Shown here: positions 12,384-27,971 of the stretch, piece after piece
How the letters are laid out: each line of letters starts with the position of its first letter
Numbering within the stretch: position 1 is the stretch's first letter
Origin: Eledone cirrhosa
Taxonomy: Eukaryota
Direction of reading: 5' to 3'
NCBI GenBank assembly: GCA_964016885.1
Contig: OZ024740.1
Coordinates: 348,068,001 to 348,132,000 of the forward strand
DNA length: 64,000 nt
The notes under the pieces: generated by a model
Told to the model about the DNA's origin: nothing
Databases searched by the model: none
Seen by the model: only the letters and a program-made list of their open reading frames with translations
Position numbers and translations under genes: made by a program

Positions 12384-12420
12384 CTATGCAAATTAGTCTG
12401 CCCACTACTAATTTTCATAG
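12384..12420 (+). promoter_or_regulatory. Inverted octamer pair upstream of hammerhead (family A; one per unit)
   Basis: CTATGCAAATTAG tctgcccacta CTAATTTTCATAG; ATGCAAAT at 12386, 100 nt before the core at 12486. Confidence 0.5.
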
Positions 12421-12478
12421 AAAAAGCATATAACGATATGTGCTTTTACGATTCTCTAGAAAGGCCGGAAGATAGGTA

Positions 12479-12523
12479 AATATTGCTGATGAGTTGTAAC
12501 AACAACGAAACTAGTTCAATATT
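12479..12523 (+). ncRNA. Hammerhead ribozyme, family A
   Basis: Identical motif. Confidence 0.9.
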
Positions 12524-12942
12524 CCTTATCTGGCTTTCTGGAGAATAGAGGAAAGGTGTTTCCTCAAAAACCAGTATGACTCTAAAAACCGGTTTGTCTG
12601 TGTTTACATACAGAATAGCTGGACACTCACAGTAAAGTGACCAGTGAAAAACTCGGTACATCTACATATGTATACGTGTGTGTATTCATATGCATACTAG
12701 TATTTCAGTATACATTTGTGGATGTACATTTTTAACTTAATTGTTTAAGCGTCAGTCATACAAAAGTGAGTTACAAACGAAACGAAATTTAATTTCGTTT
12801 CGTTATTTGTTTTTATCGTCTCCGTTGAACCGGTACGTACTCACGCTCTATGCAAATTAGTCTGCCCACTACTAATTTTCATAGAAAAAGCATATAACGA
12901 TATGTGCTTTTACGATTCTCTAGAAAGGCCGGAAGATAGGTA

Positions 12943-12987
12943 AATATTGCTGATGAGTTGTAACAACAACGAAACTAGTTCAATATT
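12943..12987 (+). ncRNA. Hammerhead ribozyme, family A
   Basis: Identical motif. Confidence 0.9.
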
Positions 12988-13956
12988 CCTTATCTGGCTT
13001 TCTGGAGAATAGAGGAAAGGTGTTTCCTCAAAAACCAGTATGACTCTAAAAACCGGTTTGTCTGTGTGTTTACATACAGAATAGCTGGACACTCACAGTA
13101 AAGTGACCAGTGAAAAACTCGGTACATCTACATATGTATACGTGTGTGTATTCATATGCATACTAGTATTTCAGTATACATATGTGGATGTACATTTTTA
13201 ACTTAATTGTTTAAATATGTATTATTATCTATAAAAGGCAGATTTTTGTGTCTGTATGTGTTTCAATTTTATACATTTACACAATTCCAAAAATATTGAA
13301 TGAATAATTAAGCAGAATGTTTACTAATATTCTAACTTGGGTCATGGGCAAACTTATTGGGTAAAAAATGCCATAATTACGGAAAAATCGATTTATTTCA
13401 ACAATCGATGATTTCTCCTCTCTCATATGATATACGTTTCCTATATCTACTCCCTTCATCACCTCCCCTTAAAATTGCTACCTTCTCTTATAAGTGTTTG
13501 TGAAAAAGAGAAACATTGAAAAAAAACATATACACACATATATGTGGGTGCATACACACACATATATGTTGGTATGGTTACGATTGACGTCATAGAAACA
13601 GGAACGCGGGAATTTCAATCAATCAACGCATACACAGTTTGTTTTAGCTCCATTTCGAAGCTGACTTTCATTTACTAAACTGTAAGTTTTTCAATCGGCC
13701 TTACACTTTCAAACTATATTTTTCTGTATAAGTAACTTTAACCCTTTATTTTCGACATAAAAATACACACATACATACAAATACCTGTAAATTTTTTTGG
13801 GGGGCATTTTTACATTCAATTATCAGCCTTATATTTTCAAAGTCAATTTTTATGTTGAAGTAACATACATACATACATACATACATACATACATACATAC
13901 ATACATACATACATACATACATACATACATACATACATACATACATACATACATAC

Positions 13957-14560
13957 ATGGTGGCTGCCAACTCGTTTTCGAGTACGGCCACTACTTTATA
14001 TCCATGTAAGAGAACTCTTACCGATACGCTTAACGAGTGTGACGTTTTAGTCCAGCCAGCGACTTGAAAACTCTGGTACAAACAGTGTGACAATTATTGA
14101 CACATAGTGCTGGGCTCATGTTACCATATGACGACAAGTGTAGAGAGATATCCAGATATAAAGCAATGCCTGTGCCGTGAAGCTTTTATAGTGAGTAAAG
14201 GCACTGCACAAAGCCAGTCCCACTCTCTTAACCAAGATGATATTTACCAAAAAGAAGTACAAGTCAACATCATTGGATACCATCAGGGTTGCAGGTGTTA
14301 TATCAGAGTTTTCCTTCTCCTAGAATTCTGCCTTGACAAAAGCTAAGGGGTCATCTCTCCTGGTGATTTTGGATGGCCATTGACTCTTAAGAGCTCCTTT
14401 GGCCTTTGACAGGTTTTTTTTTTGTCCTGCAGGATGTCCAAAGTCACCCTCCTCACCAAGAAACCTTGGTGGGGTAGCCAGTTTAGTCGCCAACGACCCG
14501 ACCATGAGACAGTTTGTACTGGGATACATGTTACCAGTAGCACCAACTGGTGACCTGACA
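13957..14560 (-). mobile_element. ~600-bp RTE-derived non-autonomous retroelement nested in the Helitron
   Basis: Reverse complement of the copies at 39043-39605 and 44349-44960; flanked by (CATA)n. Confidence 0.75.
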
Positions 14561-15099
14561 TACATACATACATACATACATACATACATACATACATACA
14601 TACATACATACATACATACATACATACATATACATACATACATATACACACATACATACAAATACCTGTCACTTAATTTACACACACATCGGCCTTACAC
14701 TTTCATACACACATACATACATATACACACATACATACAAATACCTGTCACTTAATTTACACACACATCGGCCTTACACTTTCAAACTAAATTTTTCTGT
14801 AGAAGTAACTTTAACCCCTTCTTTTCGACATAAAAATACACACATACATACAAATACCTTAACATTTTTTTGGGGGGTCTTTCTTATCAATCTTTTTACA
14901 TTCAATTATCAGCCTTATACTTTCAAAGTCAATTTTTATGTTGAAGTAACTTTCACCCTTTATTTTTCGATACCCATTTACTTACTAACATTTGTATCAC
15001 AACAACAATAACAATATTCATAAACAGACAGTAGAATTTCAAAGTCAATTTTTCTGTAGAAGTAACTTTCACCCTTTCTTTTGGACATAAAATACCACC

Positions 15100-15810
15100 T
15101 AAAAAGAGAAGTCACCTCAGTCGACATACCGCGTCAGCAGTGGCGCAAAAGGCTACTATAGCAAACGAGTCCTCTGAGGAAAATGCTTCAAGACTTTCAC
15201 AGACAGCCTTACGTTCAGCAGAATGTAGAGCCGCTGAAAGTTACCAACAGCGCACCGCACGCCTAGCCAAAATGGCTTCATACCAGGCTTCTTCCAGGGC
15301 TTCAGAGAGCCGGGAACAAAGGTGGAAGCGCCTGGCTAGAAACGATGCGACTAATGCTGCTTCCAGGTCTTTGGAACGTTTAAAACAACGGACCGCTCGC
15401 CTTCCTACGAACGCTGCGGCTATGACTACTTCCATGTCCTCTGAAGATGCAGACGGGCGGTCCATTAGCATTGCAAATGTTGCTTCTGCTATTGCTGCCA
15501 GACCTTCCCACCAACCACACGACCAATGTTCTACGTTCAAGCGTAACAGTCGACGGCGAGAAGCTGCACGCGATGTGACGAGCCCCAACACAGCCCTTAC
15601 TGGCACCTACGGGCTTTCAAGTATGAGCAAAACGTTAATTACTCGATGCGCTCTGACATAAATATAGGCGAGATGCGCTTCAATTGCCAATTCTGCAATG
15701 CTACAAAGTGGGCTGGGGAGCCACCTGCAATGTGCTGCTTAAACGGTAAGGTCACCTTGCCCCCTCTTCTGGAACCGCCAGAGCCTTTGAAGGAACTACT
15801 GACTGGTTAT
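15100..15810 (+). pseudogene. Helitron RepHel N-terminus (E/R-rich repeats + Cys cluster)
   Basis: ESSEENASRL/ESREQRWKRL repeats; frameshifted IGEMRFNCQFCNATKWAGEPPAMCCLNGKVTLPPLLEPPEPLKELL. Confidence 0.8.
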
Positions 15811-15849
15811 ACCTCAAGGTGAAAAAAAACAAACCCTGATCCCCCAATA

Positions 15850-26465: not shown

Positions 26466-26532
26466 TATTTTATTATACATATTTCAGAGGTACTGAGCTA
26501 TCTTCAAAAGTACGTCCTCATCAGATAAAATA
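26466..26532 (-). ncRNA. Type I hammerhead ribozyme
   Basis: Mirror of 26621-26687. Confidence 0.82.
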
Positions 26533-26620
26533 AGATGATGCATGACATACCCTGACTTAGTAGATGGTTAAGATTCACTCATAACTAAATCTTAACTATC
26601 TACTAAGTCAGGCATCATCT

Positions 26621-26687
26621 TATTTTATCTGATGAGGACGTACTGTTGAAGATAGCTCAGTACCTCTGAAATATGTATAATAAAATA
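26621..26687 (+). ncRNA. Type I hammerhead ribozyme
   Basis: tattttat CTGATGA ggacgtactg..cagtacctct GAAA tatgta TA ataaaata. Confidence 0.85.
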
Positions 26688-26934
26688 TACTTGATCACAC
26701 GAATGTCTATTTTTGTTAATATTTTGAATTAATATTAATAACTCCGGAAAACCACAGTTGAGTGCTTCCAATCTATTGTAAAACTCATTCTTTGTTTTAT
26801 TCATTGAACCTTGTTTAACCTTTAAATATATATATATATATATATATATATATATATATATATATATATATGCACCTAACAGATCCTTCCTTGATGAAGT
26901 CACTGCAGCATTAGATATATTTAGAATATATCTA

Positions 26935-27640
26935 AGCCTCGAGAGTCAATATGTACAGAAGGGAAGAGAGAGTTCAACGTTGACGGACCGATTACATGAT
27001 CTTCAACAGTCCTGAAGGGTGGTCATTTACTTTGAGAACCGAGCAGATGTCGCTGTGCATTGCAGCAATCTAGTCTCTGAAGATGGGACCGAAGCCAGCT
27101 GCGTTAAGGATAGCCTCCAGATATCGATTGCCGACTCTTTCGAAAGCTTTTGATTTATCTAAATTGATCAGATCCCCACCGAAGCCAGATGAACTGCCTA
27201 TCCTCTCTGTGATGTATCGAATGAAGTGGAGGTTGTCGTGTATGGATCTGGCCGGGATTGCGCAAATATGCACATCCATTATCAAACCCTCGGTGACAAG
27301 CCCCAACCTCATCGCAAAAACCTTGGTCAAAATCTTAAACTTTGTGTTTACCAGATGTATGGGCCTGAAATTGTCTAATGCGTCTCACTTGTTCTCATCT
27401 TTTCTCATCAGCGTTACTGCGGCCCGACTCACAGAACTAGAATATTCCCGTTCTGCTGCCAGTTGCAATAGACCGAGTCGGGGACAACGGAGAACAAGCC
27501 TGACATATCTACGTAAAGTTCGTAGGGCAGACCATCCAAAGCGGGTAAATTGTGCCTCGTGCAGCCGACCAGGGCATCCTCAATCTCGGCTGATGTTATC
27601 CTCTTTCGCAGCACTCAACATCAGCTGGTGAGAGACGCAG
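26935..27640 (-). pseudogene. Non-LTR (L1/Tx1-like) reverse transcriptase fragment
   Basis: ITSAEIEDAL..PALDGLPYELY, NFRPIHLVN..KILTKVFAMRL, RSIHDNL, NLDKSKAFERV; stops and frameshifts. Confidence 0.85.
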
Positions 27641-27834
27641 TAGGACGGTTGTCCCCCTTGCTTCTGCTGGACATCACCAGAGGGCGTTAGCCCCCCTGTG
27701 TTTGCATAGCTACGTTTTCTTAAAACCGTATTTCTTTGGCGATACGAAATTTCTCTACATATTGTATAAAGCTATGCTTGAAGCGAAATCTTATTTCTTT
27801 TCTATTATAAGTTGAGCCAAATTATGCAGCTTCA

Positions 27835-27866
27835 TATGCAAATGAGATTAATCACCTCATTTACAC
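27835..27866 (+). promoter_or_regulatory. Inverted octamer pair, family C
   Basis: ATGCAAATGAG attaatcac CTCATTTACAC; ATGCAAAT at 27836, 99 nt before the core at 27935. Confidence 0.45.
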
Positions 27867-27929
27867 AGACGAGAAAACTATATATTCTCGGCTGTCTTCT
27901 AGTCCAGCAGTCGCAAGTGGTGGGAGGGA

Positions 27930-27971
27930 TCGTCCTGAAGAAAGCCAGTTAAGCCTGAAATGCATAGACGG
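27930..27971 (+). ncRNA. Hammerhead ribozyme, family C
   Basis: tcgtc CTGAAGA aagc cagttaa gcct GAAA tgca TA gacgg; palindromic ATGCAT. Confidence 0.8.

Follow-up and report, generated by a model that had tools for sequence, protein, structure and literature searches.

A predicted snRNA-type promoter inside hammerhead repeats of Eledone cirrhosa

Hammerhead repeats in the window and in the genome

The 64,000-nucleotide (nt) stretch of the Eledone cirrhosa genome analysed here (contig OZ024740.1, positions 348,068,001 to 348,132,000; hereafter the window) contains three families of non-coding repeats, A, B and C, in which an octamer-containing box and a TATA-like word stand upstream of a hammerhead ribozyme core, an arrangement interpreted below as a predicted internal promoter of the small nuclear RNA (snRNA) type. 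The units measure 464-466 nt in A, 474 nt in B and 323 nt in C. Octamers at 12386 and 12850 (plus strand) and at 11888 and 11422 (minus strand) each lie 100 nt before the CTGATGA of family A, and the distance from octamer to core is 88 nt in B and 99 nt in C (octamer at 27836, plus strand); an earlier sequence-only reading had picked out these three modules, and their placement and the A-rich and TATA words that follow the octamers proved to be as it described. Its label of tandem-ribozyme families suits A and B, which form tandem hammerhead units both in the window and in genome arrays, but not C in the window, where about 1.4 units hold one core. The features are listed below in window coordinates, together with the word at the position of the proximal sequence element (PSE) of snRNA promoters, scored by position weight matrix (PWM).

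10991..12000, minus strand: family A array, 2.2 units of 466 nt, with a long 3′ end (unit position 299) into (AT)n
12001..13214, plus strand: family A array, 2.6 units, 5′-truncated, with a short 3′ end (position 232), head-to-head with 10991..12000
12385..12396 and 12849-12860, plus strand, and 11889-11878 and 11423-11412, minus strand: A octamer box TATGCAAATTAG, the same box as in host U6, U6atac and MRP
12402..12418, plus strand: weak A word CCACT at the PSE position, octamer+16, PWM score -7.0, overlapping the inverted arm CTAATTTTCAT
12427..12433, plus strand: A TATA-like box at octamer+41, with a predicted start at about 12457-12458
12471..12530, plus strand: A type I hammerhead, core 12486-12516, GUU triplet, predicted cut after 12516
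12020 and 12950, plus strand, and 11788 and 11322, minus strand: further A cores
21301..22288, minus strand: family B array, 2.1 units of 474 nt, with a long 3′ end (position 318) in (AT)n
22290..22430, plus strand: inverted partner fragment of family B
21729..21740 and a second copy at 22203-22214, minus strand: B octamer box, octamers at 21739 and 22213, 88 nt before the core
21691..21723, minus strand: B word TCAGC at octamer+16 (21723), inverted arm, and TATA at octamer+42 (21697)
21667, minus strand: predicted B start at a CA step, between the two bases
21621..21651 and a second at 22095-22125, minus strand: B hammerhead core, palindromic CUAG stem III, GUA triplet
27644..28116, plus strand: insertion of family C, some 1.4 units (unit length 323 nt), flanked by a long interspersed nuclear element (LINE) reverse-transcriptase fragment and (AT)n
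27835..27885, plus strand: C box TATGCAAATGAG, TCACC at octamer+16 (27852), inverted arm, and TATA at octamer+43 (27879)
27909, plus strand: predicted C start at a CA step
27935..27966, plus strand: C hammerhead core, palindromic UGCA stem III, AUA triplet, stem II weakened in this copy
28508..28593, minus strand: inverted fragment of family C
18093..18281, plus strand: 5′-truncated copy of family E, hammerhead kept and promoter part gone

The cores of A, B and C fit type I hammerheads in their core motifs and in stems I-III, stem III being a single base pair with a palindromic tetraloop (CUAG in A). A scan of the window at Rfam gathering scores returned nothing, hammerheads included, and the cores were assigned from core motifs and helices. 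Folding of the hammerhead favoured a dimer over two monomers by 2.7-7.5 kcal/mol. By their testable features A, B and C are non-LTR (long terminal repeat) retrozymes, with cleavage predicted.

Pattern counts were made over the 3.0-Gb genome, each against a control. The octamer followed by a core (TATGCAAAT N70-100 CTGANGA N10-30 GAAA) was found at 35,264 places, against 3 in the reversed control, a count of core-like pattern matches that are mostly young A and B copies, and the pattern of the octamer dyad gave 19,352 matches against 0, which places the octamer upstream of the core above chance. When the first T was dropped from the pattern, matches rose to 38,170 against 41 and took in a coding-like repeat; this candidate, provisionally called family D, was rejected as a false positive when no hammerhead stems could be recognised by eye. 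Further box-bearing families (E, F and I) and single representatives (G, H and J) were recovered by searches in which the octamer was part of the query. Families A and B align at 66% identity over 249 nt (E 1e-9), with 72% over the ribozyme, and no alignment of C to either was obtained at E<0.1. The homology of A and B over much of the unit means that the families form a radiation rather than a set of independent inventions.

Promoter-like layout in the repeats and promoters of host genes

In order to place the repeat module, it was compared with the promoters of host snRNA-type genes. All 5 distinct host promoters of type 3 for RNA polymerase III (Pol III) that were compared (three U6, one U6atac and RNase MRP) have both an octamer box and a TATA box, the octamer box matching TATGCAAAT(G/T)AG to within one change and lying at -76 to -78, the TATA standing at -30. 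Among 15 U6 loci, the box lies at -76 to -78 in 7 (representing three distinct promoters), is displaced by an insertion in 6 and is lacking in 2; it was found in one of six U6atac loci (the best locus) and at the single RNase MRP locus. Three loci of the U6 array and several U6 and U6atac loci without a box at -77 were left out of the promoter comparison as interrupted or retrocopied. The host U1, U2 and U5 promoters carry the word YCAGT (YCAGT-NNN-T-N-TA) at -55 to -58 in all 13 distinct promoters, with a TATA-like word near -30 and a shared AATTAAAT-like word near -90, and alignment revealed no octamer near -77 in any of the 13. The octamer is thus the upstream box of host Pol III type-3 promoters, since it is present in U6, U6atac and MRP and absent from U1, U2 and U5; the comparison with U1, U2 and U6 that had been suggested to us bore out the likeness for U6 (and also U6atac and MRP), with the same 12-nt box and TATA at -30, and not for U1 and U2. 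In the U6 array on C19, 6 of the 11 copies read (L057, L058, L060-L063) have the octamer box separated from the U6 start by an insertion of 192 nt, after which another TATA-like word apparently still stands near -30; such copies may not be expressed, or may do without the box.

The TATGCAAATKAG box of the host Pol III type-3 promoters is present in the repeats, and the spacing downstream of it differs. The octamer-to-TATA distance is 41 nt in A, 42 in B, 43 in C and E and 47 in I (module counts for A, B, C, E, I and F of 27, 57, 9, 7, 5 and 9, many from shared arrays), compared with 46-48 nt in the host Pol III promoters, so that A, B, C and E fall outside the host value and only family I agrees with it. 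Measured from octamer+16 to the TATA, the repeats have 25-27 nt, within the 22-27 nt found from YCAGT to TATA in host RNA polymerase II (Pol II) promoters and below the 30-32 nt of host Pol III promoters. As a rule, a 4-bp shift of the PSE distinguishes Pol II from Pol III promoters. The repeats nevertheless carry the octamer box and not the upstream word of the host Pol II promoters, which stands near -90 without an octamer at -77. The module is called a hybrid here because it departs both from the host U6-type spacing and from the host U1/U2-type upstream word.

Ten family representatives, chosen by octamer and core only, were compared position by position. A+9 and G+10 are each present in 9 of the 10 and C+17 and A+18 each in 8 of the 10, and a strict YCA at octamer+16 is found in 6 of the 10. 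With the PWM derived from host Pol II promoters (host scores 8.2-20.3), a strong PSE was found only in family E (11.1). The strict combination of box, YCAGT at +16 and TATA matches 92 genome places against 0 in the control, and the majority of the 28 distinct loci read among these resemble relatives or remnants of retrozymes (older kin of B, C, E and F, and new families), 9 of the 28 retaining an intact hammerhead core; a scan of 20 of the 28 at Rfam gathering scores returned no Rfam gene. Host Pol II snRNA genes start on an A preceded by a pyrimidine. A CA step occurs at TATA+30 in B, B2, C and E, and likewise in 11 of the 19 hybrid-pattern loci with the TATA at 42/43, and a TG step is found there in one of two copies of family I. 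Family I (L185-L188, L204) is old and has the host Pol III octamer-to-TATA value of 47, and it is a candidate for a different polymerase. In family E (L081, L083, L126), the main module is preceded by 33-nt repeats, two to three in number, of the region holding the octamer and TCAG.

Favoured reading, proposed insertion cycle and alternatives

It is moderately probable, judging from the layout, that the repeat module is an internal snRNA-type promoter, probably read by Pol II, from which transcription is predicted, and each repeat would likely switch itself on by means of it. The earlier proposal that each monomer brings its own promoter is retained in that the octamer and TATA of every monomer resemble an snRNA-type promoter, with the inverted dyad dropped as an essential part. 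A POU factor would bind the octamer, SNAPc the YCA element at octamer+16 and TBP the TATA 25-27 nt past that element, and transcription would start about 30 nt after the TATA and proceed through the array. SNAPc bound to the PSE has been likened to a ruler that sets the start site (PMC9758055), and features of the PSE set the choice of polymerase in insects (PMC1761439). Two successive hammerheads, probably acting as dimers, would release an RNA one unit long in which the promoter sequence lies close to the 3′ end. Once circular, this RNA would be reverse-transcribed into (AT)n by a Penelope-like enzyme, beginning at either of two fixed sites separated by 60-70 nt, and every insertion some two units long would regenerate the promoter and two ribozymes. 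The inverted arm would act as a second constraint, at the RNA level, keeping the promoter words paired in the circle.

The ends of the insertions are consistent with such a cycle. Of 29 segments of A, 27 end at positions 226-232 or 299-301 of the unit, and those of B, whose termini were mapped with microsatellite masking, end at 259-263 or 312-318 in 23 of 30, with (AT)n contact in 25 of 30. Head-to-head pairs with one short and one long end were found at 7 loci each in A (of 21) and B (of 18). The 5′ ends of A and B insertions are scattered and many insertions exceed one unit, as expected of a circular or multimeric template, and the features of Penelope-type insertion seen in A and B comprise a fixed 3′ end, a one-sided tail, variable 5′ truncation, an inverted partner and a microsatellite target. 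The fixed long 3′ insertion end is followed 34-38 nt downstream by the promoter module, which can thus be regenerated only from a tandem or circular template, in agreement with the earlier statement that a tandem copy restores the unit. The 5′ end of the C insertion (27644) coincides with the predicted ribozyme cleavage position, the one such case among 10 C segments, and adjoins the LINE reverse-transcriptase fragment (RVT_1, 27073-27384, minus strand); this start may be the trace of a cleaved RNA that was reverse-transcribed up to its end.

A plain U6-type Pol III promoter, tolerant of a shorter spacing and yielding monomer RNA by read-through of T-runs, is an unlikely account of the module, though the one from which the analysis set out. 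The box occurs in host Pol III genes and not in host U1, U2 and U5, family I has the spacing of 47 and, in one of its two copies, a U6-like start, a T-run coincides with or adjoins the long 3′ end of A and B, and a schistosome hammerhead repeat with a Pol III promoter has been described (PMC6765202). Weighed against this are a spacing in A, B, C and E that is 3-7 nt below that of any of the 5 host Pol III promoters, and the T-runs inside the elements, where the stretch immediately upstream of the box holds T5 in 22 of 25 contexts of A and T6-7 in 20 of 36 of B, the terminators of host Pol III genes being T5-T10. Runs as long as host terminators in A and B favour Pol II, since in many copies T5-T7 separates the ribozyme from the promoter that follows and the insertions carry that promoter, so that the unit RNA must include the promoter region and the template must have been made through the T-runs. 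The spacing and T-run results together lowered the initial pure U6/Pol III reading, and transcription by Pol II is favoured by the T-runs, short of proof. Four sequence runs were also considered; they consist of contigs of unrecorded kind, even over single-copy DNA in X1 and mainly repeats in the other three, and are for this reason silent on transcription and start sites.

Also rather improbable is an ordinary Pol II promoter of octamer, TATA and initiator, served by a POU factor and TFIID without SNAPc, in which the snRNA likeness would amount to a shared POU site. The weak PSE scores of A, B and C agree with it, the CA step at TATA+30 would suit any TATA promoter, and transcripts of this kind would escape snRNA 3′-end processing, which would suit multimers; the match to host genes, however, extends past the octamer (T before it, KAG after it), and family E and old relatives carry the exact U1/U2/U5 word YCAGT at a fixed +16. 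A word resembling the 3′ box of host snRNA genes was noted in A at 12565-12577, 49 nt past the cut, with a score of 10.6 against 15-19 in the host, and a 3′-box scan of families B and C found no such word.

Retention of the module because of its RNA structure, or because the reverse transcriptase or some other RNA-binding protein recognises it, with arrays read through from outside, is the least probable of the alternatives: it draws on the hairpins in which the octamer and TATA segments of A, B and C are predicted to lie, in the circular fold as well, on the strong folding of the monomers (z -9.8, -8.7 and -3.2 for A, B and C) and on the position of the module near the fixed 3′ end, and it is countered by the same 12-nt box and TATA in host genes without a hairpin, by variation of the 3′ arm and not of the octamer arm, and by a hairpin that reaches significance in only 5 of 9 representatives (z -5.8 in A and about -2 to -2.6 in B, B2, C and F). 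Fold z-scores were not significant in E, F2, I and I2, nor in the 5 host promoters, and the inverted arm is not universal among the families. The covariation reported between T and G versions of the octamer comes down to one base pair, and the host box also has either T or G at that position. In an unselected DNA run, aligned by similarity alone, two bases of the B inverted arm differ in about 53% of the depth, and no octamer base variant was found in B in the same run at a 40% cut-off. The arm probably represents a secondary RNA constraint in strongly folded units, though it may instead be a second POU site.

Several observations weigh against an snRNA-type Pol II promoter. The PSE is weak in the families of the window (PWM 0.5 in C, -1.0 in B, -7.0 in A) and absent in I (-17.4); three representatives (G1, G2 and H) have neither YCA nor TATA; the register of TATATA can be read in two ways, 2 nt apart, and the TATA offset of family F is not clear; and the rule of a CA start at TATA+30 is one base off in A and fails in F. 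No host gene with the hybrid layout was found among the 28 distinct loci of the 92 matches, and both promoter words of the repeats lie in predicted hairpins that host promoters do not have. The identity of the A and B boxes (12 of 12 positions against a background of 66%, p ~0.007) is subject to their shared ancestry, and octamer conservation beyond A to C is built in because the octamer stood in the query. As to the T-runs, 13 of the 20 long-run B contexts come from one array, the B and C copies of the window have T4 only, and T-runs can lengthen after insertion. An autonomous partner did not turn up beyond fragments, no search having been aimed at a full-length one.

Taken one step further, the radiation of retrozymes may here have built a promoter unlike that of any host gene, combining the Pol III octamer box with the Pol II PSE-to-TATA spacing to give strong constitutive transcription without T-run stops, a sister family with a spacing 4-6 nt longer being served by Pol III; together with the newt case discussed below, capture of snRNA promoters would then be a general route of animal retrozyme transcription, a proposal put forward tentatively. 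If true, families separated by 4-6 nt of spacing would constitute a natural polymerase-switch experiment, and snRNA-promoter capture would answer how animal retrozymes come to be transcribed in general. The retrozyme surveys cited below give no promoter, and the module described here predicts factors, start site and polymerase at base level in about 35,000 copies.

Known systems and neighbouring elements

The promoter of newt satellite 2 has a functional octamer and PSE, and its transcripts carry a trimethyl cap. Satellite 2 is a tandem hammerhead repeat transcribed by Pol II from an internal snRNA promoter (Coats, Zhang and Epstein 1994, as cited in PMC2220036 and PMC6765202), and so shares with the present repeats the combination of tandem hammerheads and an internal snRNA-type promoter, predicted in the present case. 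The repeats differ from it in belonging to a non-amphibian genome, in comprising at least six related families, in having a TATA box, in being known from sequence alone, and in an octamer that abuts the PSE position as in the U6-type genes of this host. In Schistosoma Sm-alpha repeats (Ferbeyre 1998), a Pol III promoter is followed by the hammerhead and lies at the 3′ end of the cleaved unit, which makes tandem copies necessary for propagation (PMC6765202); promoter before hammerhead and the requirement for tandem copies are common to both systems, and the description of Sm-alpha given there has Pol III and no octamer/TATA layout. With a promoter inside a hammerhead repeat already in print for newt (Pol II) and schistosome (Pol III), the suggestion of an undescribed system no longer holds; what is apparently new is the mixing of two kinds of host promoter parts, as predicted from the repeats, and the literature searched (subscription papers and supplements lying outside its scope) yielded no account of this layout in retrozymes.

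Animal non-LTR retrozymes consist of non-coding tandem units with type I hammerheads, for which a circular RNA intermediate and Penelope-dependent mobilisation have been proposed (PMC7229834; Li, Clavereau and Pollet 2026, bioRxiv 10.64898/2026.07.22.740005), and they are reported to be highly expressed in all tissues tested (PMC7229834). The present repeats share the tandem non-coding units and type I hammerheads (PMC7229834), and their short palindromic stem III is like that of axolotl HHR_Amex1 (PMC7229834); in comparison with the surveys, the units here are 323-474 nt and two fixed 3′ ends have been mapped. The main texts of PMC7229834 (where promoter refers to T7 only) and of bioRxiv 10.64898/2026.07.22.740005 (0 mentions) contain no promoter analysis, and neither main text mentions octopus or cephalopods. 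Like Penelope-like elements, the repeats show 5′ truncation, partial tandems, an inverted 5′-truncated partner, a tail at one end and microsatellite targets, and they differ in having no open reading frame (ORF) and a tail difference of 60-70 nt rather than 30-40 (PMC8557442). The compact H1 RNA promoter is a host gene promoter with a Staf site, outside any mobile unit (PMC11340601).

Further hammerhead-like cores were observed in the window at 17549-17889, 18421-19064, 26428-26725, 45518, 7905-7946 and 161-201, with short inverted pairs beside (AT)n; the preserved part of their families is without the box. At 47980-49610, a Penelope-like 3′ end is present as an inverted pair, with a motif like GIY-YIG (without a Pfam match at E 0.1) and a hammerhead about 270 nt past the stop codon, without the octamer box. 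No box was found upstream of this ORF-linked remnant or of nine other hammerhead-like sites in the window (4-5 mismatches in 12), most of which are truncated. Near position 1500 of locus L112, a U6atac retrocopy is joined head-to-head to an inverted copy of family E, which suggests a template switch by the same enzyme. Between 15035 and 17430, the window also holds a broken Helitron-like element with a PIF1 helicase (E 5e-51), ending in a GC hairpin and CTAG.

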